Translations under genes and position numbers: made by a program
The notes under the pieces: generated by a model
What the model was told of the DNA's origin: nothing
The model's input: only the letters and a program-made list of their open reading frames with translations
The model's database searches: none
Assembly (NCBI GenBank): GCA_039028615.1
Contig: JBCCHT010000008.1
Location: 160,001 to 224,000 of the forward strand
Length of the DNA: 64,000 nucleotides
From: Myxococcota bacterium
GTDB taxonomy: Bacteria; Myxococcota_A; Polyangia; Nannocystales; Nannocystaceae
Reading direction: 5' to 3'
Shown here: piece by piece, positions 27,517-45,350 of the stretch
Numbering within the stretch: position 1 is the stretch's first letter
Layout of the letters: every line of letters starts with the position of its first letter

Positions 27517-28824
27517 CTACAGCAGGTGGCGCGCCTTGACCTCGAGGTAGGTCCGCACCACCTCGGGCGTGACCTGGGACGACTCGACGTCGAGCACCAT
27601 CGCGCCCGCTCGCTCGAGCTGCTGCATCAACCGTGAGCGCTCGGTGAGCAGCTCGGCCGCCGCCGCGGCATCGTACATCGCGGTCATCGAGCGCTCGGCC
27701 GGCCGCGCCATGGCCTCGAGATCGGGATCCCGCAGCAGCACACACAGCGGCAGGTGCCGCCGCCCGAGGCCCTGCACGGTACGCAGCAGCGCCTGCGCCC
27801 CGGTCTCGTCGGACACCTGGGTCACCAGCACGAGCAGACAGCGCTTGCGCAGCAGCCCGTCCATGCGCAGCAGGGCCCCCTCGTAGTCGCTCTCGGTCTC
27901 GCGAGCATGCAGGTCGAAGGTGGACCGAAGCAGCCGCCGCACCATCGACGGGCCCGCGCCCGGGGCGACGAAGCGATGCACCGCGTCGGAGAACGCGAAC
28001 AAGCCCGCATGGTCGCCGCGGCGAATGGCCACGTGCGAGAGCATCAGCGCCGCGTTGAGGGCATGGTCGAGCAGCGGCAGGCCCCCGCTGTGGGCCGTCA
28101 TGAGACGGCCACAGTCCAGGGCGAACACCACGCTCTGGTCGCGCTCGAGCTGGTACTGGCGGGCGATCAGCTTGCGTCGCCGCGCCGTGGCCCGCCAGTC
28201 GATGGAGCGGAACTCGTCGTCGCGGGTGTACTCGCGGAGGCTCTCGAACTCGCTCTCGCCGCCCCGCGACCGCGCGACCGCCGACATGCCCCACGACGGA
28301 TCCTGCTGCGCGAGCATGTCGTAGGCGCGAATCTTCTGGATGTCGGGGTAGACGCGGACCTCGTCGCGCGCGGCGATCCGCACCTGGCGAACCCACAGCC
28401 CCAGCGGAGAGCGGTGCCGGATCCAGTGGTCTCCCAGCTCGTAGGCCCCGCGGCAGCTCGGGATCACCCGGTACTGCACCGTCGCCCGCCCGTGCGGACC
28501 CAGCTGGACCTGCGCGGGTAGGCCTTCGGCCTCGGCGCCATCGAAGACATCGTCCGTGACCTGCAGCTCGAGCGCCTGCGGGGCCCGGGAGCGCAGCTCG
28601 AGCGTGACCACGTTGGGGCGCCCGATCGAGAACACGCCCGTGCCCACCGAGCGCTGCACGTCGATCCAGCGCCGCCGAGCCAGGGCCGCGTCGACCCCGA
28701 GCGCGAGTAGGAGCCCGAGATCGGCCGCCAGCATGGGCCCGATGAACGACGCGTCCGCGGCCGCGGCAATGCCGAGCACGAGCGGCACGATGGCCAACAG
28801 GACGCTGATGCGGGACGGAAGCAC
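27517..28824 (-). CDS. DUF58 (vWA-associated) protein of MoxR operon
   Basis: [22 protein letters not shown] and LDCGRLM motifs. Confidence 0.9.
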
Positions 28825-28845
28825 GAGGACGATCGCTGTTGCCGG

Positions 28846-29810
<965 letters not shown>

Positions 29811-29814
<4 letters not shown>

Positions 29815-31763
29815 GAGTGGTCCTCGTTCATCAGTGCCATGAGCCCGCGGATGATTCGCCGGGCTTCTTCGTCGTCATCGACCGTGCCCTGCTCGGCGGC
29901 CGTGTGGGCCTCCACGAGCAAGCGAACGATCTCGGTCTCGTCGCGCCCGGTACGGCGCGCCAGGGCTCGGGCCATGCCTTCGAGCCCGGGACCTGCGGTA
30001 TGCGGGACGGAGGCGCGCAGCCGGTCGAGCGCCCACGTGGAGTAGGCCGCGGCCGCATGCGGCAGCGCGCCCGCCCGCCCGTAGACCCGCGCCATCGCCT
30101 TGGCGTGGCGGGTGAACGCCCGACGGCTCGGCGGCGCGGACCCGCGGGGCCGACCGAAACGCACGCCTCGCCACCAGTACAACAGCCCCATCACGAGTAG
30201 CAGCTGGAGCACGGCCGCGGTGAGGTGACTGTTGGCGATGGAATCGGTGGGGCTCGACGCCCCTTCCATGGTCCAGCTGTCGATGAAGCGCACCCGCAGG
30301 CCCGGCGCCCCCAGCAGCTCTTCGATGACCACCGCGTTGCCCGGCATCGCCAGCGACACGCTGGACAGCGCGTCGAGGTTGGGCAGCACGAGCACCTCGC
30401 CATTCCCGATCTGCCACGACATGCCGTAGATCGAGTCGCCGCGGGTGATGGTGGGGTAGCCCGCGTCGTCGCTGCGCAACACCCCGCGGTCGGGCACCCA
30501 GAGCAGCGCGAGGTCGTCCGAGTACGCGAACTGGTACCAGGCCGGAAGATTGCGGTCGGCGGGCGGGGTCGAGATGGACCAGGTGTCGATGTTCGACCAC
30601 GGCAGGGAGTGCTCGCCGCCGACCACCACGACCAGGCCACCCATGTGAACCATCTGCTCGAGGGCGTCCCATTCGGACGGCGACAGCTCGGCCCCGCTGG
30701 CGATCACCACCGCGTCGAGCGGGTGCTCGATCTGATCGAGGGGCTCGGTGGCGTACTCGGCATCGGCGCCGAGTTCCTGCAAGAACTCGATGGTGGCCCC
30801 AAAACCCGAGGGGGACTCGTCCCAGCGATACCGAAGGGCATCGCTGATCGCCCCGCAGCCGAGGCCCATGATGATGAGCGCCCAGACCAGGGCGGTGCTG
30901 CCCGCTTGCCGTAGTACCGCCTGCACTCGCGCCAGGATCGACTCGAACACCGTCTGGTCGGGGGCCTGGCCGCCGAAATAGGCCCGGTCGATCTCTCGCA
31001 AGGCCTCGCGCACGGGCCCTCGCAGCTCGGGGTGAGCCCGCAGCTCGCGGAGATAGTCGCCCGTGGTCCGCGAGCGATGCAGTCGAATCTCTCCGCGCCG
31101 ATCGAGCCGACGCAGCAGGGCGGCGTGGGCTCGCTCGATGGCGTCGAGCCACCGACCCGACGACGCGAAGTCTCGTGCCTGAGCCAAGAGCCGGTCGGCG
31201 TCGAGCACTCGCGCCTCGACGTCGTCGATCGGCTCGCGCTCGTCGTCGTCGCGCGCGGTGTCGTCGGGCTCCGGCTCGGGCTCGTCGCGACGTCGACCCA
31301 GGCTGGTGTTGCGGGCGATGGCTATGCCCAGCGCCAGCACGGCGACGCCGAGCACGATCCAGAACAGGACTTGGCCAAAGCCGCCCAGACTCGGGAGCTG
31401 GAGTCCGTCGTCCGAGCCCTTGGAACGCGAGCGACGGCGCTTCGGTTCGGGCGGACGAGCTCGCTCGTCGCGATCGCTGCGCGGGGCGACCCGGCGGGAC
31501 CCGAAGCGATGAGACTCGCCTTCGTCGACGATCACGGCGGGCTCCGCCGCACACGCCTGCTTCAGCGCGGGGCAGCGCCCGATGGCTTCCTCGGCCAAGG
31601 GGCACCACCGCCGCTCGCTATCGTTGAGCGGATACTCGGGATCCGTACAAAACGCGTAGTCGGCCACGACCCGAGCCGCTTCCTGCTCGGCCGTGGACAC
31701 GGTGGCGCCGCCCAGGTCGGTGGCGCTCAGGGAGGCCAGGAGCACGGCGTGGAGCAGGATCAC
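29811..31763 (-). CDS. DUF4129/DUF4350-type membrane protein of MoxR operon
   Basis: [10 protein letters not shown]...YFGG, RFGRP and operon position; GTGA/ATGA overlaps with its neighbours. Confidence 0.7.
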
Positions 31764-32542
31764 CGCGCGTCCTCCCCCTCGTCGTCGATGGCCATGAACG
31801 CCAGCTGGATGTCCCAGCCGTCGCGACGCGTCCGCGCATCGATGTAGTAGAGGAACTGCGCGGAGGCCACGAAGGGCACCGCGGCGAACAGCCCGAGCAA
31901 GGCCGCGAGCGAGCCACCATCGGCCAGAGCGCCCCAGGGTCGCTCCATCTGGAGCACGAAGTCGAACACGGCGGCGGCGGCCGACTCGACGATGAACACC
32001 CCGACGAGCATCGCGGTGACCGAGGCGAACAACAGACCAATGAGCCGCCCGTAGTGCCCTTTGGCGAACGCGATCGATCGACGCATCGCGGCCATGACCG
32101 GTTGCTGCTCGAGCAGCACCGCCTCGTGGATGTACAGCGTGCGGGGCCACGCCCAGGGGACGAGCACGAGCACCAGCATGGCCACCCCGAGGTAGATGCG
32201 ACTGACGATCAACGCCCCGATGAACGTGGGCAAGCGGCGAGCAAAGGTCCGCAGCACGGCCCGGGCGGTCACCTCGGGCTCGAACATCATCTGGCTGGCA
32301 GCCACCGTGAACACGCCGTGGAGGACGGTGGTCAGGGCGATGGCGAGCCACCAGACCTCACGCCACGCCCAGTCTGCGCCGCGGTGCAGCGCGAAGCAGC
32401 CCAGGGCCGCGGGCAGCAGCAGCCCCAGCGACAGGCGCAGGTACGTCCCGCCACCCACCGAAATCTGCCAGCGCAGCGCGAGGTCGAGGGTCTCCCCCAG
32501 CGTACGCGGGCGCAGCACGATCTGAGCCTGCGCGAGGTTCAT
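31760..32542 (-). CDS. Membrane protein of MoxR/SpoIIM operon
   Basis: LRPR..GE.LD N-terminus and YID.R.RRDGWDI C-terminus; TM helices. Confidence 0.75.
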   Translation of the reverse strand: MNLAQAQIVLRPRTLGETLDLALRWQISVGGGTYLRLSLGLLLPAALGCFALHRGADWAWREVWWLAIALTTVLHGVFTVAASQMMFEPEVTARAVLRTFARRLPTFIGALIVSRIYLGVAMLVLVLVPWAWPRTLYIHEAVLLEQQPVMAAMRRSIAFAKGHYGRLIGLLFASVTAMLVGVFIVESAAAAVFDFVLQMERPWGALADGGSLAALLGLFAAVPFVASAQFLYYIDARTRRDGWDIQLAFMAIDDEGEDAR

Positions 32543-33555
32543 GCCGCCCCCGCTTCGGCCTGGGCCGGCCGTGCTCGGCCCGCGAAGCCCAGGTAGCTGA
32601 ACACGAGCACCCACAGCGAGGCCGCGACGCCCCACTTGACGGGGACCGGCACCGAAGACGGCGACCAGAAACCCTCGATCAACGCCGCGATGCCCAGCAT
32701 CAGCGCCGCACCCAAGACCAGGCGCGCCAGCGCGGGCGCATGGCTACGCAGCGAGGCCAACCGGGTGGCCCCGCGGGTCTGGACGAGCGCAAAGCCCATG
32801 CGCAGCCCCGCACCTCCGGCGATGACGATGGCCGTCAGCTCGAATGACCCGTGCCCCATGGCAAAGGTGAGCAGGTTTCGCAGCGCCCCGTCTTCGTGCC
32901 ACAGCCAGCCCAAGGTGGCGCCGAGATAGAGCCCGTTGAGTACCAAGAAGAACGCACTCCCCAAGCCGCCCGCAATGCCGGTCGCGAAACAACGGAAGGC
33001 GATGCCCACGTTGTTGTACACGTAAAAGCCGGTCATCATCGTGTCGCTGCTCTGGCTGCGGCCCTGCTCGAACCCCTCGAGATAGGACTGGGCCGTGGCC
33101 TCGAGCTGCTCGGGGGGCAGCACGGTGGTGGCGAGGCTGGGGTCGAGCACGGCGGCGATGAGCACCACCACCATGGGGATCACGAACAGAGCGCAGGCGA
33201 TGGCCATATAGGCCCAGGACTCGCGCACAGTCCGGGGGAAGTCCTGGGCGATGAGCTCCCAGACCGCCCGGAAGCGATAGGGCTCGGCCCGGTACAGCGC
33301 GCCGTGGGTCCGCACCGCGAGGGCATCGAGATAGGCGATGCGATCCTGGGGAAAGCTGGCCCCGCGCACATGCACGAGATCGGCACAGACCTCTCGGTAC
33401 AGCTGCCCGACGCGAGCGATATCGGCCGGGTCGAGCTTGTGCAGCGGACGATCGGCCACGAGCAAGGCCTCGAGCGCGCTCCACGAGCCCCGCCGCTGCT
33501 CGACGAACGCGTCCGGGTCCGCGGGACGCGTGGTGCGATGCTCCGTGGCACTCAC
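32539..33555 (-). CDS. Stage II sporulation protein M (DUF95) family membrane protein
   Basis: NNVGIAF..FA.G, HGSFELTAI and AALIEGF motifs. Confidence 0.85.
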   Translation of the reverse strand: MSATEHRTTRPADPDAFVEQRRGSWSALEALLVADRPLHKLDPADIARVGQLYREVCADLVHVRGASFPQDRIAYLDALAVRTHGALYRAEPYRFRAVWELIAQDFPRTVRESWAYMAIACALFVIPMVVVLIAAVLDPSLATTVLPPEQLEATAQSYLEGFEQGRSQSSDTMMTGFYVYNNVGIAFRCFATGIAGGLGSAFFLVLNGLYLGATLGWLWHEDGALRNLLTFAMGHGSFELTAIVIAGGAGLRMGFALVQTRGATRLASLRSHAPALARLVLGAALMLGIAALIEGFWSPSSVPVPVKWGVAASLWVLVFSYLGFAGRARPAQAEAGAA

Positions 33556-34334
33556 GATTGAACGTCCGTCGCAGCCGCAGAGGCGCCGACCGGCTGGGTC
33601 GCGCGGTGATGGACCAGGGCCAGGAAGCGGCCGGGATCTCGATAGCGAACGCCGAGACGCTCGGCGATGCGCGGGGCGAGCAGCTCGGCCAGCTCTTCCT
33701 CGCGGGCCGGGGCCAGCGTGTTGCGACGGGGCACGAAGCGCTCGAGGGCCCGCCGCTCGTCGGCCTGCAGCGGCACCCGGTGGGGCAGCGTGGCCAGCTC
33801 GTCGGCGGTGGGCGGCACCTCGTCGGCCTGTCCTCGCAGCAGTCGGGCTCGATTTTCGTGGATGACCACCGTGCCCGCGACCATGTCTCCGAGCCGCCGA
33901 AAGCGAGGATCGATGCTGGAGCACACGATGCCCACGCAGCCACCCACGGGCAGCCAGTCCGCCGCCCGCAGCAGATTGCGCAGCACCGAGTCGACAAAGC
34001 CCATGGGGAAGCCGCCCTCTTTGACGGTACGCAGGGCCAGCACGCGCTTGCCCGGGGTCTGGCCGCTCCACATGCTCTCGAGCAACACGTAGTAGCCCCA
34101 CTCGACCACGAAGATCACGATGAGGGCCATGCCCGTGGACTGCTCGTTGAACGCGCTGCTGCCCTCGGCCATCGAGATGAGCACGAGCAGCATGAGCACG
34201 ATGAAGCCGCGAATCAGCCCGTCGATGGCATAGGCGAGACCGCGCCGCCACGGCCCCGCCAGCCGCAGCCGCAGCGTGACGTGCTCGGGGGTCTCGATGC
34301 TGACGGTGGTGTCGAGGGGCTCACGCATGGACAA
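33552..34334 (-). CDS. RDD family protein
   Basis: TPE.V.L...LAG...R..AY.ID, GQTPGK and RLGDMVAGT motifs. Confidence 0.88.
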   Translation of the reverse strand: MSMREPLDTTVSIETPEHVTLRLRLAGPWRRGLAYAIDGLIRGFIVLMLLVLISMAEGSSAFNEQSTGMALIVIFVVEWGYYVLLESMWSGQTPGKRVLALRTVKEGGFPMGFVDSVLRNLLRAADWLPVGGCVGIVCSSIDPRFRRLGDMVAGTVVIHENRARLLRGQADEVPPTADELATLPHRVPLQADERRALERFVPRRNTLAPAREEELAELLAPRIAERLGVRYRDPGRFLALVHHRATQPVGASAAATDVQS

Positions 34335-34346
34335 CCGGCGGGCCCG

Positions 34347-34874
34347 CTACTCGGTGGGCGACCAACCGGCCATCACGACCTTGGTGTTGGCCATGCGGTC
34401 GTGCAAGCAGCGTTGCTCGGAGCCGAAGATCCACAGCACGTTGACCAACGAGATGAGCGGACCCACCGCGGGAATGACCGCCAACAACGAAAAGGGCAGG
34501 TAGCGCAGGGCGAACAGGTGGCCGGCCGAGGGCGGCTCGTTGCTGTTGACGTCGACCATCCGCAGCCCCAACGCCCGCTTGCCCACCGTCTGGCCCGACT
34601 GAAGGAAGTACCACTGCACCGCTGCGAACACGACCAGGCCGATGAGCGAGGTGATGATCGTATTGATGAAGTCCGGCTCCGGGTTGTCGAAGTCCAGCAA
34701 CCCCAAGGCGATGAGGATGGCGAAGTTGGGGATCGTCAGCGCGAAGCCATCGATGATGGCCGCGCCCAAGCGAGAACCACGGCTGGCCAGCGGCGGCTCG
34801 AGGCCATCGCCATGAAAGGACGGCTGGTTCGTTTGATCTTCGACCGGAGCTTGGTAGGGGTTGATATCGTTCAT
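34347..34874 (-). CDS. RDD family protein
   Basis: NPY.AP, LASRGSRLGAAIID, GQTVGK and RCLHDRMANTKV motifs. Confidence 0.88.
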   Translation of the reverse strand: MNDINPYQAPVEDQTNQPSFHGDGLEPPLASRGSRLGAAIIDGFALTIPNFAILIALGLLDFDNPEPDFINTIITSLIGLVVFAAVQWYFLQSGQTVGKRALGLRMVDVNSNEPPSAGHLFALRYLPFSLLAVIPAVGPLISLVNVLWIFGSEQRCLHDRMANTKVVMAGWSPTE

Positions 34875-35027: not shown

Positions 35028-36266
35028 CTACTGCTTCTGCACGGCGATTGCCGAGGCCCCGCCCAGCACGTGCAGGAACTGGTTGAAGTGGCCGCGCTCG
35101 GAAACGCGAGCCGCCTTGCGCAGCACCTCCTGCACCGATCGCGGCTCCCGACGCTGCAGCCATCGCAGCAGCCACCGCGCCCCACGAGTGTCGGGCAGCT
35201 CGAACGAGTACCCATTGGCCGCGACGATGAGCGCGTCACCGGCCTCCGCTCGCTCGAGCCACAGGTCGGGCTGCGGCGCGATGACGTCGGCGGCGGCGAG
35301 CTTTCGAAACGCCCAGGGTGCCGGCAGCACTCCGCCCGCGGTCCGAACCCGCAGCCAGTGATGCAGCTGATCGCGATGCAACGCACCCGATGCCAAGACC
35401 TCTGCGAGCCGATCGAGCGGTGCGGTGAGCTCGGGCGGCGCCTGCTGTCCGTCGGCATCGGCGGGCAAGGCCATGGTCGGCGGCACGCCCATCCCCGAGA
35501 CGGTGCGCTCGAGATGCGTCGCCAAGGTTCGATGCATGATGCCGATGCTGAACGACGCCCCCAGCCCCCCGTCGGCCGTCGCCACATGCCAGGCGTTCCG
35601 CGGCCAGTAGGCGAGATCGCGGGTGCCCAGGGTGAGCGTCTCGGCGTCGTGCTGGTACTCGGTGGCCTCGGCCGCGGCGCGGGTCCGCAGGGTGGGCACG
35701 CCGGGCCGCGGAAAGTAGTCGTCGTCCCACACCAGCATCTGCTTGTGGCCCTTGACCGCGAACGCCATGGTGTCGGTGAAGTCGCGGTGGATCCCGCCCG
35801 GCGTAGCCCCGTAGTTGCCCAAGAACAGCGCGGTGTCGGTGGTGCACACGGGTAAGCCGACGCGCCCGTAAAACCCCCGCAAGAAGGTTCGGACCCGGCG
35901 CCACGCCCCGACGTGATGCCGGGTCAGATCGTTGAAGATGACACCGTGCGGCCGCCCCTCGCTGAGTCGATCGAGCCGCCGCGCGTAGCCGGCCAGGCTG
36001 CGATCGGAGGCGCGGGGCATGAACAGCCCCAGCTCCTTACCCGACTCGAGCTGCCGATCGTCGACATAAAAGCGCGCCCGAAACTGGTCGGGCCGCTTGG
36101 CGCCCTGCACCAGCGCATCGAAGGCCTCCTTGGCCGTCAGCATCGGGCGCGTCAGCGGAGTTCGCATGACGCCGGGGCGCTGCGACCAGAGCCGATCGAC
36201 GAAGTCCGACCAGAAGGGCTCGAGGGCTAGCGATTCCACGCGTTCTTTTCTTCGGGAGGTGGCCAT
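35028..36266 (-). CDS. JmjC/cupin Fe(II)/2OG oxygenase (RiPP cluster)
   Basis: F.GNY..TP.GIHRD, G.K and YWP..AWHVA motifs. Start at MATSRR, or at the GTG at 36239. Confidence 0.8.
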   Translation of the reverse strand: MATSRRKERVESLALEPFWSDFVDRLWSQRPGVMRTPLTRPMLTAKEAFDALVQGAKRPDQFRARFYVDDRQLESGKELGLFMPRASDRSLAGYARRLDRLSEGRPHGVIFNDLTRHHVGAWRRVRTFLRGFYGRVGLPVCTTDTALFLGNYGATPGGIHRDFTDTMAFAVKGHKQMLVWDDDYFPRPGVPTLRTRAAAEATEYQHDAETLTLGTRDLAYWPRNAWHVATADGGLGASFSIGIMHRTLATHLERTVSGMGVPPTMALPADADGQQAPPELTAPLDRLAEVLASGALHRDQLHHWLRVRTAGGVLPAPWAFRKLAAADVIAPQPDLWLERAEAGDALIVAANGYSFELPDTRGARWLLRWLQRREPRSVQEVLRKAARVSERGHFNQFLHVLGGASAIAVQKQ

Positions 36267-37327
36267 GTTCGTCCGTGGGCGGCGTAGAACTCTTCGTACT
36301 CGCGGTATCGGCCCATGCCGGCCACCGCCTCGAAGGCGGACAGGCGCGTGCAGCCGTAGGGGGCCTGCACCGCGTCGGGACACAGGGTGGCGAACGCCTC
36401 GCGGAGCAGACCTTCGAGCTTCCAGTAGCGCTTGGCGGGTGTCTCGTAGCTCCGGTAAAAGGCCCGGCGAATGCGGTGGAACTGCTTTTCGGCCGCCTCG
36501 TCGATGAGCGACTCGTGGGCGAAGCGTGAGCCCACCGCCTGGCCGTAGGGGCCCAAGTGCAGGTTGTCGCCGAGAAACTTCGCGTAGCGATTGCGACCGA
36601 AGCGAACGTTCACCGACAAGCTCGTGGTGACGTACTCGATGTGGTGCCACCAGGCGGGCGGGATGTAGACCGCCTCGCCCGGCTCGAGGAAGAAATCGTA
36701 GCCGCCGACGAAGCGAACGAACTCGGCCCGGTCGCGCTCGCTGAAGTCACCGAACTGGATGAAGCTCTGGTTCTTCATCGGCAGCATGCGCAGCGACTGC
36801 GAGGGCGGCACCAGCAGGATGCGCTTGCGACCGAAGACCTGGTAGAGGATGACGTGGCGTAGATCGCCGTCGTAGTGCATGTGGGCGTAGTTGCCCTCGC
36901 CCGCGCCGAAGATCATCGACAGGACCTCGTCCTCGCCCGGCGGCATGCGAGCGTACGCGGGCAGCGTGAACAGGTCGCGCAGCATGCCCGGCGTGTCGAG
37001 CTCGCTGCACAGCAGATCGGTGGCCGGGTTTCGCTCGAGGCGTCGCAAGTAGGCGCCGAGCTTCGATGGTTTGGGGGCGACCGGGGGCGGCGGCGGCGTG
37101 CCCCGCTGGTAGGCCCTAAACATCCCGCGCGAGGCCTCGGGCTTGATCTGCACGGGCAGCGACGCGAGCCTGCGCTCGGCCTTCGCCCGCGTGTCGATGC
37201 GGCGGATCGGGTCGCCCGTGTAGAGGTTGGTCAAGATCACGGGGCGCTGCGTCGCCAGGTAGCGGCGTCGCATCTGGCCCGGGCTCGGCGCCTCGATCCG
37301 GCGAATGCGTCGGTTGGCGTTCATCAT
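36227..37327 (-). CDS. JmjC (cupin_8, FIH-like) Fe(II)/2OG oxygenase (RiPP cluster)
   Basis: RPVIL, HMHYD, QVFGRKR and LEPGEAVYIP..WWHH motifs; ATG 1 nt after the rSAM stop. Confidence 0.85.
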   Translation of the reverse strand: MMNANRRIRRIEAPSPGQMRRRYLATQRPVILTNLYTGDPIRRIDTRAKAERRLASLPVQIKPEASRGMFRAYQRGTPPPPPVAPKPSKLGAYLRRLERNPATDLLCSELDTPGMLRDLFTLPAYARMPPGEDEVLSMIFGAGEGNYAHMHYDGDLRHVILYQVFGRKRILLVPPSQSLRMLPMKNQSFIQFGDFSERDRAEFVRFVGGYDFFLEPGEAVYIPPAWWHHIEYVTTSLSVNVRFGRNRYAKFLGDNLHLGPYGQAVGSRFAHESLIDEAAEKQFHRIRRAFYRSYETPAKRYWKLEGLLREAFATLCPDAVQAPYGCTRLSAFEAVAGMGRYREYEEFYAAHGRTWPPPEEKNAWNR

Positions 37328-37328
37328 C

Positions 37329-39062
37329 TCAAGCGGGGATCGCCTCGGCGCCGAGCTGCACGTGCCATGGCTGGGCCGCACGCCTTCCTGGGACCTCGAG
37401 GTCGTGCTCGAAGCGGAAGCGGTGCTCGGGGCGACTTTCGTCGGCCACGTGCGCGTGTAGGCTCGTGAGCGTGTGCCAGTGCTCGGGCTGGTCTCGCAGG
37501 CTCTCGACCACGCGGTACTCGATGGCGTCGCGCACCACGGCGGCCGCCTCGGGATCGGGCGCCCGCGCCTGGGCCCAAGCCGACAGCGCCCGACCGAAGC
37601 GCGCCACGTTCGTCATCAGGGCATGGTCGTCGAGGGCGTCGAAGAACGAGGCGGTGAAGATCTCGGTGAAGAACGCCCCGCCCGGCCGCACCTGGTACGT
37701 ATCGAAGAGCCGAGAGATCACGGGATACATCTGCTCGATGAGCATGGAGACCAGGTGGGCGCGCAGCATGTCGGCCGGGCTGAACTGCGGCGTCTGGCGG
37801 GTCACATGCGGGCTCACGTCGTCGTAGCGAAGGCCGAGCTCCTTCGCGGTGGCCCGGAACTCGGTGCCGGGCAAGACCTGCAGCGGCTGCAGAGCCATGG
37901 GCGCGCCGGGCTGGACGCCCTGGATGTAGTCGATGCCCTCGAGAAAGTCCTGCAGGGTGTCGCCGGGCAGCCCGTAGATGAGGTCCCAGCGCAGGTTGGG
38001 GTTCTCGCCCAGCTTACGGATGTTGCCTTCGAGCCGCTGCAGGCTAGTGGGGCGACCGATGGTCTTGAGGGTCTGGCGGTTGACGCTCTGCAGCCCCACG
38101 CCGAAGTGCAGGCGCCCCTGGCGGAACAGCTCGCGGCACTGGTCGGCCACCAGGTCGGGCAACATGTCGAGCTTGATCTCCGTATGAAGGTTTCCGTCGG
38201 TGAACTCTTCGAGGAAGAACCGGAAGATCTCGAAGGCTCGCTCCTTCCGCACGGTGAGGATCCCATCGGCAAAGTAGACCGACTTGATCCCCAGATCGCG
38301 CACATGAGCGAGTTCCTGCAACACTCGATCGATGTCGAAGTATCGCATTCTTCCCCCGTCGTTCTTGGGGTACTGGCAAAAGGCACAATTGACCGGACAA
38401 CCGCGAGAGGTCTCGACGATCACCGAAGGCCGCCCCTCGCGATGAAAGCGAGTCAGCAGCTCTTGTACGGTTGCCCCCAAGATCGGTGACGGGATTTCGT
38501 CGAGATTCTCGATATAGTCGCGGCGCTTGCCGCGGACGATCTCGTCCCCATTCCGAAAGGCGATGAAAGGGACACCGTGAAACCCAGCCTCGCCCGCGAG
38601 GGTCAGGCCGGTCGACGGCGCGAGGCCGAGCCACGCGAGCAAGAAGCGGCGAAACGCCTGCTCGCCTTCGCCATCGATCACGTAGTCGAGCTGCGAGTGC
38701 TGCGACAGCAGGCTCTCGCTCTCCCCGTAGGTATCGGGGCCGCCGGCCACGATGGTGAGCTCCGGGCGTAGCTTCTTGCAGACCGCCGCCACCGCCAGCA
38801 AGAAGCCCGCGTTCCAGCAGTAGAGCGATAGGCCCACGATCGTGGGCGATTGCGCGATGATCTGCCGAGCCGTGTCGATGCACGCGCGCGCGTGCGCCTG
38901 GCGATCGCGGTGGGTGACGGCGAGCACCGGGTGATGGATGAACTCGCAGCGCTCGGCCACGCGCTCGTCGAGGCACGCGTAGTTGCGCAGCAACCGGAAG
39001 GGGGTCGACGAAGCCTCGAAGCTCGGCCCCTGGCTCACGAACACGATGCGTACTGGGTCCAT
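37329..39062 (-). CDS. B12-binding radical SAM enzyme (class B methyltransferase-like)
   Basis: Cobalamin-domain motifs VGLSLYCWN, AGGP and GEGE; ETSRGCPVNCAFC (CxxxCxxC); DLIYGLPG. Confidence 0.9.
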   Translation of the reverse strand: MDPVRIVFVSQGPSFEASSTPFRLLRNYACLDERVAERCEFIHHPVLAVTHRDRQAHARACIDTARQIIAQSPTIVGLSLYCWNAGFLLAVAAVCKKLRPELTIVAGGPDTYGESESLLSQHSQLDYVIDGEGEQAFRRFLLAWLGLAPSTGLTLAGEAGFHGVPFIAFRNGDEIVRGKRRDYIENLDEIPSPILGATVQELLTRFHREGRPSVIVETSRGCPVNCAFCQYPKNDGGRMRYFDIDRVLQELAHVRDLGIKSVYFADGILTVRKERAFEIFRFFLEEFTDGNLHTEIKLDMLPDLVADQCRELFRQGRLHFGVGLQSVNRQTLKTIGRPTSLQRLEGNIRKLGENPNLRWDLIYGLPGDTLQDFLEGIDYIQGVQPGAPMALQPLQVLPGTEFRATAKELGLRYDDVSPHVTRQTPQFSPADMLRAHLVSMLIEQMYPVISRLFDTYQVRPGGAFFTEIFTASFFDALDDHALMTNVARFGRALSAWAQARAPDPEAAAVVRDAIEYRVVESLRDQPEHWHTLTSLHAHVADESRPEHRFRFEHDLEVPGRRAAQPWHVQLGAEAIPA

Positions 39063-39093
39063 CCGCGGCACTTCAGAGCACAAAGAGAAGGGT

Positions 39094-39115
39094 GCCAGCC
39101 CCCCGGGGGGCTGGC
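39094..39115. repeat. Perfect 22-bp palindrome upstream of rSAM gene
   Basis: GCCAGCCCCCCGGGGGGCTGGC is self-complementary. Confidence 0.7.
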
Positions 39116-39286: not shown

Positions 39287-39457
39287 TCAGGCGTTCGTGA
39301 AACGGGTGGTAAACCCACCGATCAGCGTCAGCTCGAAGCTGCAGCGGTAGTAGCCGCCGGTCACCTCGAGCAACTGATCCTCGTCGAGCTCCTCGGTCTG
39401 CTGAGTCACGACCTTCTTCTTGACGACGAGCTTCTTCTGTTTGTTCTTCTTTTCCAT
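39287..39457 (-). CDS. RiPP precursor peptide with double-glycine leader (56 aa)
   Basis: Hand translation: MEKKNKQKKLVVKKKVVTQQTEELDEDQLLEVTGG-YYRCSFELTLIGGFTTRFTNA*. AGGA RBS, EL.E.QL..V.GG motif and S/T-rich core; lies between lanB and the rSAM gene. Confidence 0.9.
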   Translation of the reverse strand: MEKKNKQKKLVVKKKVVTQQTEELDEDQLLEVTGGYYRCSFELTLIGGFTTRFTNA

Positions 39458-39659
39458 CTGTTGTCCTACTGTATTTCCCGAGCTCGGTCTTCGAGCCCGA
39501 GCTGTGGAACTACATTAAAGCAGTCCCGTCGTGTCCTTGTTATGGACAGTTTGGAATGTACTTAACAGGAAAACCTGGTTCAAGTAGAAATTCGTGGAAT
39601 CGGACACATCCGGGTGTTAGTCTTCCCGCCTACCCCACGTTATTCTCGAAGTACTCGTA

Positions 39660-42600
39660 ATGACAGAGTCTTTCGTCTTCCGACGGCCAATTCTCCCGCT
39701 GAGTGCCCTCATCGACGCCGGAGCTTGTCAGTCGTCAACTAAGCAAAACGAGCACCTTTCCGAGCGTATCGACAGTGAGTGGCACTATCTGCGTAATTTG
39801 GTGACGGCACCATTGCTGCAACAAGCGCTGCACATTGCCAGCCCCAATGCGCTCCAAGCCCTCGGTGAAGAGTCGAGCGACCGGAAGCAACAGAAGAAGA
39901 TCGAACGCACACTTGCGCGCTATCTGTCGCGTATGACGTGGCGATGCGAACCCTTTGGGCTATTCGCAGGCATCGGCACTGGCACAATTAGCGAACGCAC
40001 CAATCTACACCCGGGCAAAGATCTCCGCCTTCGCCGCCATACCCGGCTCGACACCGGGCTGGTCGCCGATGTCGCCGCGCGCCTGCAGTCCCACCCGGAT
40101 GTGCTCCGAACCCTACGCTACTTCCCGAATTCGAGCGTATTTCGGGTCGCCGAGGGCGTGCGACACCTCGCCGCGCGCCCGACTTCGCGCGGGCGCACCT
40201 TCGATCTCGTCGCGCTCGAGTCTTCTGCGCCCATCGTGGCTGCGCTGGACTTCTGCCGACGAGGTGTGCCCTTTGCCGCCGTGGCAGACTATGTGGCCAC
40301 CGAGTTCGAGGCCGAGCACGAAGAAGCGATCGAGTTCGTGGAATCGCTCATCGAGAGTCAGACTCTGGTGAGTGAACTCGAGATCACCCTGACCGGAATC
40401 GAGCCCACACTGGCGCTGTGCGCGGCGCTGACCGAGCACGAAATCCCGGTGGCCGCCGCCGTCTGCGAGCACCTTCGCGCGATTCATGATGCGATCGAGT
40501 CCATCGATGGCACTGCGGTCGAACGCATCACGCTCGATGCTCAGCGCACGCTCGAGCACCGTGTCCGTGAGCTGGCCGGGCCCGACTACTCGGGGCCGCT
40601 GCTTCAGGTCGATCTGCACTTCGAAGGCGCCACGCCCACGCTGGGGCGCGACGTCGTGCGACAGCTTCGACGAGTCGCCGAAGTCCTGCCGTGGTTCGGT
40701 ACGCGCCAGCGCGGGGCCGAGGCGTTCGCGACTCGCTTCATCGAGCGCTACGGCTACGCCGAGGTGCCCCTGTTGGAAGCCGCGGACGAAGACTTCGGCA
40801 TCGGGGTCGCCACGTCGCAGCGCTCCTTGTCTCCGCTGCTCGGCGGCATCGTGTTTCCCATCGCCCTGGCCGTGGACCAGCCCAGCACCTGGGCCCCGCG
40901 TCACGAGTTCCTGCTCGAGCGCCTCAGCGGGGCGCTCCGCCGCGGCGAACGGGAGATCACCATCACCGCCGAAGACGTCGAGGCGCTGAGCGAGGTCGAG
41001 GACGCTCCCCTGCCGCTGCCGTCGGCGCTGTCGGTGCGGGCCACCGTAGTGGGGTCTGCGTCGCAGGTCGAGTCGGGTAAGGCGCGGGTGCTCGTGCGCG
41101 GCGTCGAGGGGCCCTCGGGAGCGCGGTTGTTGGGCCGCTTCGCCCACGGGGACCCCAAGCTCGCCGACGAGGTTCGCGAGCATCTGCGGGCCGAAGAACG
41201 ACTCGATCCCGAGGCCATCTTCGCCGAGATCGTGCACCTGCCCGAGGGACGCCAGGGCAACGTGTTGCTCCGCCCCGTGCTGCGCGAGCACGAGATCCCC
41301 TACATGGCCCGCAGCGGAGCGCCGCTCGACAAGCAGATCCCGCTCGACGATCTCATGGTGTCCGTCTCGGGCAACTCCGTGGTGCTGCGCTCGCGTCGGC
41401 TCGGCAAGCGCATCGTGCCGCGGTTGTCGACGGCCCACAACTACGACAACCTGCGGGCGCTTCCGCTGTATCGCTTGCTGGCCGCGATCCAAGACCAAGG
41501 CTGCGAACCCCGGGTCAAGTTCGAGTGGGGCCCGCTCGAGAACTCGGAATTCCTGCCGCGAGTGGTGTACGAGCGGGCGATCCTCAAGCCGATGACGTGG
41601 CGAGTCTCGGGTCATCGGCTCTCGCAGTGGGCCGCGCTCGAGGGGCAGGCCCTGGCCGATCACACCGCCGCGCTTCGCAAGGAGCTGGGGCTTCCTCGCT
41701 GGGTCATCTTGGCCTCGGATGTCGACGATCCGCTCGCGGTCGATCTCGAAAGCCCGATCATGCGCGAGTCGTTGGCTCAGATCCTTCGGCGGCGCACCTG
41801 GGCTCGCTTCACCGAGATGCTGCCCGGCCCCGACGAGCTGTGCTCCGATGGCCATGTGCACGAAGTCGTCGTGCCCTTGGTGCGCGACACTCCGCCCCGC
41901 GAGGTGCCTCGGGTCGAGCCGGTCGAGTCGAAGCTCCGCTACTACCCGCCGGGCAGCGAGTGGCTCTACGCGCGGCTCGTCGCCGGCCGCGGGTTGCTCG
42001 ACGACGTGCTGCTCGAGTTTCTGCCCGTGGTCTCGCAGGTGTTGGGCCAGCAGCAGGCCGACCGCTGGTTCTTCGTGCGCTACAACGACCCCTCGTGGCA
42101 CCTACGGCTGCGCCTGCACGGCGAGCCCACCCGGCTGTGGAACGAGGCCCGGCCCCGCCTCGACGAGGTCGCCGCGCGGCTCGTGGCCAACGGCACGCTC
42201 AGCGACTTCGAGTACTGCACCTACGACCGCGAGCTCGAGCGCTACGGCGGCGACGCCACCACGGAGATCTGCGAGCACATCTTCAACGTCGACAGCACCG
42301 CCATGGCGCGCATCGTGGCGCACGTGAACGACAGCGGGCAGGCCGACCTTCGTTGGCACGCGGGGCTCGTGGCCACCGATCGCATGCTCGACGACCTCGG
42401 CTTCGACCGGGCGGGCAAGATCGCGGTGCTCCAGCCGCTGCGGGACCTCATGGCCAGGGAGTTCCAGCTCGAAGGCGCGCGGGGCCGCTCGCTGAGCAAG
42501 AAGTACCGGAAGCTGCGCGGCACCGTCGAAGCCCTCGTCCAAGACCGCAACCACTCCGCCGCGCTGGCGCCGATCCACCAGATCCTCGACCAGCGCTCTG

Positions 42601-42797
42601 CTGCCCTGGTTCCCCTGGGCCAGCACCTGCGCCGAGCCGAGAGCACGCAGCCGCTCGATCGAGTCGGCTGCGCGCTGCTGCACATGCAGCTCAACCGCCT
42701 CTTCGACAGCTTCCAGCGCGAGCACGAGATGGTGCTCTACGACTTCCTGTACCGCCACCATCATTCGCAGTCCAAGCGCAGGACGCCCGGTCGATGA
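39660..42797 (+). CDS. lanB: Full-length LanB-type dehydratase (glutamylation + elimination domains)
   Basis: YLSRM..R..PFGLFAG, QVDL, GRF, PRLSTAHN and FLPRV. Elimination domain WFFVRY.D..HLRLR, Y.RELERYGG and HM..NR. 1045 aa. Confidence 0.92.
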   Translation: MTESFVFRRPILPLSALIDAGACQSSTKQNEHLSERIDSEWHYLRNLVTAPLLQQALHIASPNALQALGEESSDRKQQKKIERTLARYLSRMTWRCEPFGLFAGIGTGTISERTNLHPGKDLRLRRHTRLDTGLVADVAARLQSHPDVLRTLRYFPNSSVFRVAEGVRHLAARPTSRGRTFDLVALESSAPIVAALDFCRRGVPFAAVADYVATEFEAEHEEAIEFVESLIESQTLVSELEITLTGIEPTLALCAALTEHEIPVAAAVCEHLRAIHDAIESIDGTAVERITLDAQRTLEHRVRELAGPDYSGPLLQVDLHFEGATPTLGRDVVRQLRRVAEVLPWFGTRQRGAEAFATRFIERYGYAEVPLLEAADEDFGIGVATSQRSLSPLLGGIVFPIALAVDQPSTWAPRHEFLLERLSGALRRGEREITITAEDVEALSEVEDAPLPLPSALSVRATVVGSASQVESGKARVLVRGVEGPSGARLLGRFAHGDPKLADEVREHLRAEERLDPEAIFAEIVHLPEGRQGNVLLRPVLREHEIPYMARSGAPLDKQIPLDDLMVSVSGNSVVLRSRRLGKRIVPRLSTAHNYDNLRALPLYRLLAAIQDQGCEPRVKFEWGPLENSEFLPRVVYERAILKPMTWRVSGHRLSQWAALEGQALADHTAALRKELGLPRWVILASDVDDPLAVDLESPIMRESLAQILRRRTWARFTEMLPGPDELCSDGHVHEVVVPLVRDTPPREVPRVEPVESKLRYYPPGSEWLYARLVAGRGLLDDVLLEFLPVVSQVLGQQQADRWFFVRYNDPSWHLRLRLHGEPTRLWNEARPRLDEVAARLVANGTLSDFEYCTYDRELERYGGDATTEICEHIFNVDSTAMARIVAHVNDSGQADLRWHAGLVATDRMLDDLGFDRAGKIAVLQPLRDLMAREFQLEGARGRSLSKKYRKLRGTVEALVQDRNHSAALAPIHQILDQRSAALVPLGQHLRRAESTQPLDRVGCALLHMQLNRLFDSFQREHEMVLYDFLYRHHHSQSKRRTPGR

Positions 42798-43291
42798 GCG
42801 CCGAAGCGATCGTCGTGGGCCTGCTCGGGCTGTGGGTCGTGGCCGCGGCCCTCGTGCAGGTGCCGTGGGGCTCGCGGTGGGTGCCCAACGTGGTCATGAC
42901 GCTCTTTCTGCCGGTCTGGACTCTGTTCACCGACCCGATGATCGCGTTCGACTACGGCCTGTACTGGCAATCGCGGGGCAAGGGCGCGGACGAAGACGAG
43001 TGGGAGCCAGTAGAGATCGCCGCCCCACGCGGCCTGCTGAGCGCGCTGTGGAACCCCCGCAAGCGCATGGCGGCGCGCTTCCGTGCGCTGGTGGCCCTGG
43101 TCACCGCGCTGCGCATGCAACGAAGGACCGACGCGATCCCCGACTCGGTCGCCTACCGGATCCTCGAAGAGCACGTTCGCAGCCAACGCAGCAACCGCGA
43201 TCCCTTCGTGTTCGCCATCGTCATGACCGACCCGCGCGACGACGAGGCCGAGCCCCACTTTCTCTACGTCTCCGAGCGGTGTGAATCGTGA
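42794..43291 (+). CDS. Small membrane-anchored partner of HTTM protein (SdpA-like)
   Basis: ATGA overlap with lanB; N-terminal TM helix; LP.W.LF..P...DY and LWNP.KR motifs. Confidence 0.65.
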   Translation: MSAEAIVVGLLGLWVVAAALVQVPWGSRWVPNVVMTLFLPVWTLFTDPMIAFDYGLYWQSRGKGADEDEWEPVEIAAPRGLLSALWNPRKRMAARFRALVALVTALRMQRRTDAIPDSVAYRILEEHVRSQRSNRDPFVFAIVMTDPRDDEAEPHFLYVSERCES

Positions 43292-44124
43292 TCGCTCCGA
43301 TCGACAGCACCACGGCGCTGCGCCTGGTCGAGGTGGTCCTGGGCGCGAACCTGCTGCTCGCCTCGCTCGAGTACCTCGCGCAGCATGCCGACTTTCGCCC
43401 CGGCGGCCTGGCCTACGGCGGTGCGACCTTCCGCGGCGGCGGAGGCCTGCGGCGGGTCAACCGGGCCGTCGCCTCCGCCCCCTTGTTTCCGTTGCTCAGC
43501 GCGGTGCGGGGACTGGGCGCCATCGCGTTGATGGCCGGGGTCGTGCACGGCTCCGCCCTCCCCGTGCTGATGGTCGGCCTGTGTGCGCTGACCGTGGCCA
43601 TGAACATGAGCTTCGTGTTCGGCACGGATGCCTCCGATCAGATCAGCCTGCTCGTGCTCTTCGGCCTGACGGTGGGCGCCCCCTTCCGCGACAGCGAGTC
43701 CATTCGGCTGGCCACGCTGTGGTTCATCGCGCTGCACTCGGCCATCTCGTACATGAGCGCGGGGTGGTCCAAGCTGCGGATCCGCGAGTGGCGAGACGGT
43801 CGCTTCGTTCGCAGCGTCGCCACGTGCGAGCTGTACGGCCATCCGTGGACCCAGCGGGCGCTGTCCGGCCAGGCGATGGCCGTGCTCGCATCGTGGGCGA
43901 CCATGGGGTTCGAGGTCCTGTTCTTCCTCGCGATCGTGGGCGGTCCCGTGCTCGCCCCGGCCGTGCTCGTGGTGGGGTTCCTCTTCCACCTGAGCAACGC
44001 GGTGTTCATGGGCCTCAACCGCTTCGTCACCGCGTTCCTGGCCACCTACCCCGCACTGTGGTTTTGCGGGCAACGCCCCGAGTCGTTCCTCGATCTCGCC
44101 GCCGTCTTCACCACGGGAAGCTAG
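43288..44124 (+). CDS. HTTM-domain (SdpB-like) integral membrane protein
   Basis: Multiple TM helices; G.D.SDQ, Y..AG.SKL...W.DG, FE and FH..NA..MGLN.F motifs; GTGA overlap. Confidence 0.75.
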   Translation: MIAPIDSTTALRLVEVVLGANLLLASLEYLAQHADFRPGGLAYGGATFRGGGGLRRVNRAVASAPLFPLLSAVRGLGAIALMAGVVHGSALPVLMVGLCALTVAMNMSFVFGTDASDQISLLVLFGLTVGAPFRDSESIRLATLWFIALHSAISYMSAGWSKLRIREWRDGRFVRSVATCELYGHPWTQRALSGQAMAVLASWATMGFEVLFFLAIVGGPVLAPAVLVVGFLFHLSNAVFMGLNRFVTAFLATYPALWFCGQRPESFLDLAAVFTTGS

Positions 44125-44126
44125 CC

Positions 44127-45350
44127 ATGCCCGATACCGCCGCCAACTCTGCCCCCATGCCCGGGCTCGGTGCCCTGCTGGGCATGGACGACCTCGCGCC
44201 GTTTTTTCGCGAGCACTGGCCCGACCGTCACTGCCTCACCCACGGCTCGGTCGAGCGGGTCGGCGAGCTGGGCCACGTGCCCGAGCTGGCCAGCGTCGAT
44301 ACCCTGCTCGAGGCCGTGGACGACGAGATCCTGGTCATGCCCAACCATCTGCCGGGTGAAGGCTACGGCGGGGGTGTGCCGGTCAAATCGTCGGCCGCCC
44401 GGGCGCTGTTCGCCTCGGGGCTGACGCTGTGGATCAAGCGACTCGACAAGTCGATCCCGTTCTTTGCGCGCTTGCGCTCCCGCTTTGCCGCCGACCTGGG
44501 CGTGGCCGAGTCCGACGTGCACCCGCAGCTGTGGGTCTCCCCCAAGGGCAAGGCCACACCGCAGCACTTCGATGCCGCCGAGGTGTTCGTGTTCCAGCTG
44601 CGGGGGCACAAGCGCTGGCGCGTCGCGCCCAACGACGAGGTCCGCTACCCCATGATCGACTCGCAGCTCAGTCGCATGCAGCTGCGTCGCGCCGACACGC
44701 AGCTCGACCTGCAGCCCGGCTCGTTTCTCTACCTCCCGCGCGGTCACTGGCACCACACCGAGGCGCTGTCCGAGTCCTGGTCGATCACCCTGTTCGTCAA
44801 GGCGCCGAGCTGGCTGCGAGTGCTGCAAGAGCACCTGTTCCGCGAGCTGGGTAAAGACGAACGGTGGCGCAAGCCGGTCGCGGTGGCCTCGCCCGTGGAG
44901 GGCTATCGGCGCGAGTCGGCCGCAGAACTCGGCACACTGCTGGGCGAGCTGGTGCACGAGTTCGCACCGCAGCACGCGGATGCGATCTTCGAGGCGGCCC
45001 GCCGCGGGGTGACCGGCCGAAGCCGAGCCGCCCGCGAGCGCTCGCGGACACGGCCGTATCGACGCATCGAAGGCAGCACCGTCGAAGTCGAGCGCGGCGG
45101 CTCGATGGTGGTGGTGCGGGTGAGCTCTACCGAAGACACGATCACCGAGCTGGAGCTGTCGGCCGAGCTCGAGTCCATCGTGCGGTGGATCATCGAGCAC
45201 GAGGGCGCCTTCAGCCCGGTCGATCTCGACCCGTTGCTGCACGAGATCGCGGGCGACGCCTTCTCGCGAGCGCTGTACACCAACCAGTACCTGCCCACGC
45301 TCTTGCACGAGCTGTATGATGCCGGGCTGCTCGGTAGCGACGAAGAATGA
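44127..45350 (+). CDS. JmjC/cupin oxygenase (YcfD/ROXA-like; RiPP cluster)
   Basis: FFREHWP, HFD..EVFVFQL.G.KRW and YLPRGHWH motifs. Real start is MPDTAAN. Confidence 0.85.
   Translation: MPDTAANSAPMPGLGALLGMDDLAPFFREHWPDRHCLTHGSVERVGELGHVPELASVDTLLEAVDDEILVMPNHLPGEGYGGGVPVKSSAARALFASGLTLWIKRLDKSIPFFARLRSRFAADLGVAESDVHPQLWVSPKGKATPQHFDAAEVFVFQLRGHKRWRVAPNDEVRYPMIDSQLSRMQLRRADTQLDLQPGSFLYLPRGHWHHTEALSESWSITLFVKAPSWLRVLQEHLFRELGKDERWRKPVAVASPVEGYRRESAAELGTLLGELVHEFAPQHADAIFEAARRGVTGRSRAARERSRTRPYRRIEGSTVEVERGGSMVVVRVSSTEDTITELELSAELESIVRWIIEHEGAFSPVDLDPLLHEIAGDAFSRALYTNQYLPTLLHELYDAGLLGSDEE

Follow-up and report, generated by a model that had tools for sequence, protein, structure and literature searches.

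A RiPP precursor gene in Myxococcota whose cluster joins a LanB dehydratase to homologues of the linaridin proteins LinL and LinG

A short ORF and the genes around it

The locus studied here raises the question of whether a 56-codon ORF, lying divergently from a lanB gene in the 64,000-nucleotide stretch of DNA that we analysed (the window), encodes a RiPP precursor and, if so, what kind of peptide the enzymes around it would make. An earlier note, made from the sequence alone, had described an unannotated 56-aa precursor with a double-Gly leader. Translation of 39287-39457 on the minus strand gives the 56 amino acids proposed, and we conclude that this ORF is a genuine gene and the RiPP precursor of its cluster. 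It is not unannotated, however, since NCBI and Logan records contain exactly this protein as a called gene. As a gene the precursor is unremarkable in itself, and it is the surrounding cluster that is of interest. The cluster has the following features.

35028..36266, minus strand: JmjC oxygenase 2, 412 aa, whose relatives mark other RiPP clusters in the genus
36227..37327, minus strand: JmjC/cupin 2OG oxygenase 1 (JMJD5/FIH-like), 366 aa from its ATG
37329..39062, minus strand: cobalamin-dependent radical SAM protein, 577 aa (PF02310 and PF04055), CxxxCxxC intact, probably a C-methyltransferase
39287..39457, minus strand: RiPP precursor gene, 56 aa, with a 35-aa double-Gly leader (39353-39457) and a 21-aa core (39290-39352)
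39464..39467, minus strand: ribosome-binding site AGGA, 6 nt 5′ of the precursor ATG
39458..39659, no strand: low-GC (48.5%) spacer of 202 bp between the divergent precursor and lanB, presumed to be a divergent promoter region
39660..42797, plus strand: full-length class I LanB dehydratase, 1045 aa (PF04738 and PF14028)
42794..43291, plus strand: LinL-like protein (DUF5819/SdpA-like), 165 aa, its start overlapping the lanB stop
43288..44124, plus strand: LinG-like HTTM membrane protein, 278 aa, homologue of the N-terminal half of LinH/CypH
44127..45350, plus strand: JmjC oxygenase 3 (YxbC/YcfD-like), 407 aa
45347..46513, plus strand: JmjC oxygenase 4 (YxbC-like), 388 aa
46515..48506, minus strand: NodU/CmcH-type carbamoyltransferase, 663 aa, convergent with the lanB operon and not co-transcribed with it

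The precursor comes first in a leftward run that continues with the B12 radical SAM gene and two JmjC genes. The rightward run consists of lanB, the 165-aa gene, the 278-aa gene and two further JmjC genes, with overlapping stop and start codons at three of its four junctions and 2 nt at the fourth. The carbamoyltransferase gene is probably part of the cluster. All cluster reading frames are intact, JmjC oxygenase 1 has an alternative GTG start at 37381, and no sigma-70 consensus was found in the 202-bp spacer. The best NCBIfam matches of the radical SAM protein, KedN5-like and rSAM_ocin_1, are both under cut-off.

Between the precursor and the radical SAM gene, close to the start of the latter, a GC-rich hairpin with a T-rich run behind it (39085-39113, minus strand) could act as a transcription step-down after the precursor, though not above chance (z -1.9; 11 terminator-like sites against 7.6 expected). 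To the left, the cluster is flanked by an operon on the minus strand (27517-34874) of RDD, stage II sporulation M-like, MoxR AAA and DUF58-like genes (RDD assigned by Pfam, the rest by eye), which looks unrelated to it.

Several features bear on whether the ORF is a functional gene. Its GC content at codon positions 1, 2 and 3 (0.51, 0.30 and 0.86) shows a coding-type bias, and codon bias, ribosome-binding site and double-Gly-leader pattern coincide in 2 of the 52,733 short ATG ORFs genome-wide, the precursor among them, by criteria chosen after this ORF had been seen; the second such ORF resembles a membrane peptide. The precursor is single-copy in the genome, and no further precursor-like ORF was found between 33.5 and 50 kb of the window.

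In a second strain, the orthologue P0010, which is the second member of the precursor's 90% cluster, is identical at 55 of 56 positions and differs only at the last residue. The corresponding enzymes are 88-94% identical to those of the window (LanB 932/1045, LinG 244/277, LinL 155/165), and a single change in 56 amino acids has a binomial p of about 0.01 at 11% divergence and 0.055 at 8%. Judged from these two strains, whose precursor, LanB, HTTM and LinL orthologues were placed on one 16,178-bp contig by matching size only, the peptide is better conserved than the enzymes and appears to be under selection. If the contig is shared as just described, P0010 lies beside orthologous enzymes, LanB among them.

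Beyond this pair the precursor is isolated. Homology searches of 5.8 billion proteins returned its own cluster only, and there was no credible match in 400 genomes of the phylum (best E 0.014) or in 72 genomes of the family (best E 0.14), the latter search being insensitive because it also missed the related leaders described below. The B12 radical SAM protein has a match at E<=1e-30 in just 1 of the 72 family genomes (33% identity), and the whole cluster is thus not found among them. The 12.3-Mb, high-GC genome is present in a marine metagenome run; the cluster occurs in one DNA run only, possibly its source, and without sequence differences. No RNA run was listed as containing it. Scans of the genome contigs for LanB and of the metagenome contigs for HTTM found nothing.

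The core, the 21 residues after the first GG, has 1 Ser, 4 Thr, 2 Arg, 1 Asn, 1 Cys and 5 aromatics, as the earlier note had counted; the aromatics are 2 Tyr and 3 Phe, and there is also 1 Glu. The core matches nothing in our searches, the cores of all leader relatives are unrelated to it, and its alternation of polar and hydrophobic residues is not significant (1,251 of 20,000).

A leader family shared within the genus

The leader is Lys-rich and fits the double-Gly rule, with Val32, Leu29 and Leu24 at -4, -7 and -12 ahead of Gly34-Gly35, the hydrophobic positions given in the accessible part of PMC10885120. The earlier note had likened it to class I lanthipeptide leaders. The evidence on this is mixed and points to a divergent resemblance: none of 10,000 shuffles scored as well against a two-block leader profile, but the precursor's score lies under the class I family's own, and the NCBIfam model NF038153, which neighbouring class I precursors do match, does not match it. 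A comparison with shuffles by a home-made HMM was null (1,052 of 2,000).

Closer relatives came from searches with JmjC oxygenase 2 (35028-36266), which has matches in 13 of 400 class relatives; the comparison covered 15 regions around these JmjC hits and one LanB locus. At 19 of 25 positions the leader is identical to small ORFs at two loci of the same genus, L164 and L165 (0 of 5,000 shuffles as good in each case), from which it differs in being 10 residues longer, 9 of them in one insert. These closest leaders are carried by YcaO-TfuA clusters with JmjC and 2OG oxygenases and without LanB. More distant are the leaders at L159 and L161 (5 and 53 of 5,000 shuffles), which belong to clusters with LanB, LanC, JmjC and arginase genes. 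The remaining JmjC loci fetched showed no ORF with such a leader by the patterns used. By sequence similarity the leader is one of a family of RiPP leaders found across the genus. The L164/L165 and L159/L161 clusters share this family and the relatives of JmjC oxygenase 2 with the window, but have unrelated cores and other class-defining enzymes, and their LanBs retain the Thr discussed below. One leader across three RiPP chemistries in one genus would amount to modular reuse and offers a handle for genome mining.

The related clusters are of interest in their own right. The ORFs L164:8779-8949 and L165:2482-2628, both on the minus strand (G227:C164 and G146:C198), appear to be the precursors of uncharacterised YcaO-TfuA clusters, which also encode an M3 peptidase and whose precursors share a conserved 14-residue C-terminal core. 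L159:6136-16103 and L161:5484-16974 (G227:C141 and G146:C82) are class I lanthipeptide clusters, each containing LanC, three JmjC genes and arginase-family genes; the latter were confirmed in L159, and the cores contain Arg and Cys.

Homologues of linaridin LinL and LinG

Sequence comparisons identify the two genes coupled behind lanB as homologues of linaridin LinL and of LinG, the HTTM half of LinH/CypH. For the 278-aa protein, Pfam gives no match and NCBIfam a weak one to SdpB; in the Atlas it resembles HTTM clusters and HTTM-hydrolase fusions (TM 0.86), and such fusions are matched by sequence too. At L132, the one Streptomyces locus checked in full, it is 31% identical to the N-terminal half of LinH over 274 aa (E 6e-24), and the 165-aa protein is 24% identical to LinL over 129 aa (E 8e-10); there, the HTTM-hydrolase fusion is accompanied by a DUF5819 protein, a methyltransferase and an ABC exporter, and by a peptide weakly assigned to the cypemycin family. 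We fetched 35 named loci together with an alignment, 21 of them from Streptomyces, and most Streptomyces loci among the matches listed have an HTTM fusion of about 635 aa followed by a protein of about 192 aa.

LinL/LinG-like pairs are common outside RiPP clusters, with a match in 40 of 401 genomes, and most of those among the matches listed look stand-alone. In a quick tree, for which linaridin loci were picked using a motif that included the window's HTTM, the window protein falls among linaridin and peptide-linked pairs, and 19 stand-alone pairs from its own class lie outside this group (SH-aLRT 99); it lies on a long branch, and its place inside its clade is not fixed. At positions 108 and 115, which are near-invariant in the family, it also differs from the consensus. 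Near 55 HTTM loci, including 20 from class relatives, tblastn gave no match to LanB, JmjC or carbamoyltransferase, and 2 of the 55 had a borderline cupin match.

The full epimerisation chemistry of CypH/CypL was reportedly set out by Xue et al. in 2023. The accessible text of Georgiou et al. (bioRxiv 10.1101/2020.07.09.196543) attributes the installation of Dhb to linaridin LinE/G/H/L; from sources likewise available in part, grmL is a candidate epimerase and cypemycin Cys19 is dethiolated to Dha.

Two side observations concern related pairs. The pairs L038-L056, from many genomes of the same class, stand alone without a precursor-like neighbour that we could see and form their own clade. In Chlamydiota (L107:273-2122, L108:8676-10474, L113:1451-3217), a hydrolase-free LinL-LinG pair lies directly 3′ of an ORF of 112-117 aa that ends in an LLxxRE-like motif; Amycolatopsis precursors (L109, L111) have similar endings, and the Chlamydiota LinL-LinG pairs with these ORFs may be an unrecognised linaridin-like family.

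Proposed product

The earlier reading was right about the precursor, the double-Gly leader, the missing LanC and the JmjC oxygenases, and it missed both the LinL/LinG pair and a Thr-to-Glu change in LanB, which matter because they bear on what the product is. With about even confidence, we propose that the ORF encodes the only precursor of a hybrid RiPP cluster and that the product is a ring-free peptide which is dehydrated, epimerised, hydroxylated by the four JmjC proteins, C-methylated and possibly O-carbamoylated. This would probably be a peptide type not yet isolated. Its chemistry is predicted throughout from the genes, starting from the observed gene, its conservation in a second strain, the leader family and the identities of the neighbours.

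Through its leader the peptide would be brought to LanB and to the tailoring enzymes, and Dha and Dhb would be formed from Ser5 and from some of the four Thr, by LanB if its Glu97 is tolerated and otherwise by LinL/LinG. The membrane-bound LinL/LinG pair would remove alpha-protons as in linaridins, giving D-residues, and may strip the lone Cys4 to Dha; PsfB, a class I dehydratase, is said to have dethiolation activity. With epimerisation and loss of Cys4, no lanthionine ring would form and no LanC would be needed, so that the pair could explain both the missing LanC and a lone Cys ahead of all Ser and Thr. The four JmjC proteins would hydroxylate side chains, the B12 radical SAM protein would add C-methyl groups, and the carbamoyltransferase would cap a hydroxyl, the simplest target since the core has no Lys, by analogy with crocagin, for which 2OG-dependent hydroxylation and carbamoylation are described in the accessible part of PMC10070186. 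A C39 peptidase-transporter encoded elsewhere would cut after Gly35 and export the ring-free, heavily modified 21-mer; the genome encodes three C39 peptidase proteins, all outside the cluster.

Hydroxylation had been suggested by the earlier note, and the oxygenases are in keeping with it: all four JmjC proteins have an intact HxD...H, and their closest solved relatives are YxbC, YcfD/NO66, JMJD5 and FIH (the relative search gave no significant match for one of the four queries). Hydroxylation is therefore likely; Arg, Asn and Phe/Tyr as its sites are guesses.

A LanB with Glu at a conserved Thr

How far LanB itself would contribute may turn on one residue. In an alignment with NisB, MibB and MadB, Glu97 (codon 39948-39950) stands at the position of NisB Thr89. 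Of 12 key residues checked, 11 are intact, LanB retaining the equivalents of R14, Y80, R83, R87, D121, D299, R464, R786, R826, H961 and R966. The second-strain LanB carries the same Glu. At this position other database LanBs have Thr in 75 of 76 cases and Ala in one, a count that excludes the unpublished genome G332, and Thr is present in all 26 class relatives covering the site, one row of which is from G332. The window's LanB is thus a natural variant at a position taken only by Thr or Ala in the 76 LanBs compared with it. Its branch is long, at about 1.0 substitutions per site, and its sequence departs from the consensus in many places. NisB T89 is listed as essential for glutamylation in the accessible parts of PMC12241602 and PMC7296275, and, in that of PMC4341554, T89A abolished dehydration in an E. 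coli-based study and cost about one dehydration in L. lactis. Glu97 may weaken, kill or redirect LanB.

These data bear on an alternative that we regard as unlikely, in which LanB alone dehydrates Ser and Thr, and LinL/LinG are passengers or serve export or immunity. The product would then be a linear all-L peptide whose Cys is free or oxidised, with decorations from the oxygenases, the methylase and the carbamoyltransferase. The 11 residues retained, the mild effect of T89A in the native host and the frequency of stand-alone LinL/LinG-like pairs would all suit this alternative. Against it, the pair is translationally coupled to lanB, is conserved in the second strain and groups with linaridin-type rather than stand-alone pairs, and Glu is presumably harsher than the Ala that abolished dehydration in the E. 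coli-based study. A bolder possibility, which we hold to be improbable, is that LanB, with Glu97 in its aminoacyl-tRNA pocket, has been repurposed, transferring another amino acid or serving as a leader-binding scaffold, and that a LinE-free LinL/LinG pair dehydrates, dethiolates and epimerises the peptide. [quoted passage not shown]

We also considered and rejected a PEARL or thiopeptide-type split LanB, as the elimination domain is fused and intact and the cluster has no YcaO. Separately, a 56-aa class I-type precursor with Tyr-Tyr near its core start lies beside a LanB at L083:629-799 on the minus strand (G328:C341), and the 12 kb fetched there (L174) gave no match to LanC.

Cysteine order, the missing LanC and the HTTM fold

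The ring-free product that we favour has also to be weighed against a lanthipeptide, in which Cys4 would add N-to-C onto a downstream Dhb, spontaneously or through an off-contig LanC, to give one reversed ring. As the earlier note had observed, the single core Cys precedes every Ser and Thr (0 of 5 are N-terminal to it), an order expected in 1 in 6 cases by chance alone. Pfam finds no LanC, YcaO, transporter or protease among the cluster genes, and the absence of LanC noted earlier extends to the whole window; PF05147 occurs in the genome only on contig C14, in a LanM, and on contig C1, in a separate cluster. A missing adjacent LanC is not in itself rare, because a LanC-type motif lies within 1.5 kb of only 12 of 29 related LanBs (by motif only, in short flanks). 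A lanthipeptide would fit the full-length LanB, the leader's relation to precursors of LanB, LanC and JmjC clusters in the same genus (5 and 53 of 5,000 shuffles) and the 366-aa LanC on C1. However, the LanC on C1 belongs to a separate cluster that also encodes a small GG peptide, a P450 and a LanB-like protein, and at least one Ser or Thr stands ahead of the last Cys in 13 of 13 precursors beside related LanBs and none in the window's. We consider this alternative distinctly unlikely.

Less probable again, and in our view very unlikely, is that the HTTM protein is a vitamin K-dependent carboxylase acting on Glu7, the single Glu of the core, to give gamma-carboxyglutamate. The fold modelled for the HTTM protein (pLDDT 94) is that of the GGCX membrane domain (Z 17.3, rmsd 3.8, 238 residues aligned), and Lys162 is invariant in the family within a YxxxGxxK motif, which we take to be the GGCX catalytic lysine region. 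This fold and Lys do not discriminate, since they are common to the whole LinG family, and the protein is 15-18% identical to GGCX against 31% to LinH. A fold search with the LinL-like model, made with the carboxylase soluble domain in mind, gave nothing above Z 4. Finally, that the ORF is not the substrate or that the cluster is decaying, as the long LanB branch and its departures from consensus might suggest, is scarcely credible, given that all frames are intact, that the peptide is more conserved than the enzymes in the second strain and that no other precursor-like ORF lies in 33.5-50 kb.

Comparison with known RiPP systems

We thus return to the dehydrated, epimerised and ring-free product and ask which known systems its cluster resembles. 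As in linaridins (cypemycin, grisemycin, salinipeptin, corynaridin), LinL and LinG homologues are adjacent, the core is Thr-rich and LanC is not needed. Unlike linaridin clusters, that of the window lacks a LinE hydrolase (free or fused), LinM, LinD and LinT, and has LanB, four JmjC proteins, a B12 radical SAM protein and a carbamoyltransferase in a context that is not actinobacterial; linaridin leaders, in the accessible part of PMC9927463, have a PxxxTP cleavage motif, whereas the window peptide has no Pro at all and a double-Gly. With class I lanthipeptides (NisB, MibB, MadB) the cluster shares a full two-domain LanB and a KKL...GG leader shape, and it differs from them in having no LanC, Glu at the Thr89 position, Cys ahead of Ser and Thr, and no match to NF038153. 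The cluster works like a linaridin-LanB hybrid and is a member of neither family, since it lacks both the LanC and the Cys order of class I lanthipeptides and both the LinE and the PxxxTP motif of linaridins.

The three Streptomyces hybrids of LanB, LanC and LinE/G/L in the accessible text of bioRxiv 10.1101/2020.07.09.196543 likewise combine LanB and Lin proteins with a class I-like precursor, but, as far as that text goes, they have LanC, LinE and Cys throughout the core; the window has neither enzyme, one N-terminal Cys and six extra tailoring genes. The cluster is new relative to these published hybrids, which come with LanC and LinE. The literature searched, which mostly excluded subscription journals, did not describe the present gene combination, and the cluster lists of Georgiou et al. 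may hold similar ones. Crocagins from Chondromyces share 2OG-dependent hydroxylation, a carbamoyltransferase and an aromatic-rich core, by the accessible part of PMC10070186, which gives a tripeptide core against the 21 aa here; the window adds LanB and Lin proteins, and CgnB and CgnE are not among the cluster Pfam hits. Carbamoyltransferases are described as exceedingly rare in RiPPs, with two examples in the part of PMC13174530 available.

Two known routes to Dhb, LanB and the linaridin membrane proteins, would thus meet on one short substrate without LanC or LinE, and the cluster therefore offers a compact test of LinG and LinL without the hydrolase, a poorly resolved matter.

The genome holds other loci with LanB-like or LanM genes. 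At G000:C1:250274-256979, a second cluster encodes a small GG peptide, LanC, a divergent 874-aa LanB-like protein, a 402-aa protein and a P450-like protein, with a C39 transporter about 16 kb away. A divergent 873-aa LanB-like gene at G000:C1:299828-302449 has radical SAM and glutamate-cysteine-ligase-like neighbours, assigned by eye, and no precursor was found there. At G000:C14:175218-180203, a LanM gene is accompanied by a 197-aa NHLP-like precursor candidate, with a 365-aa gene between the two.
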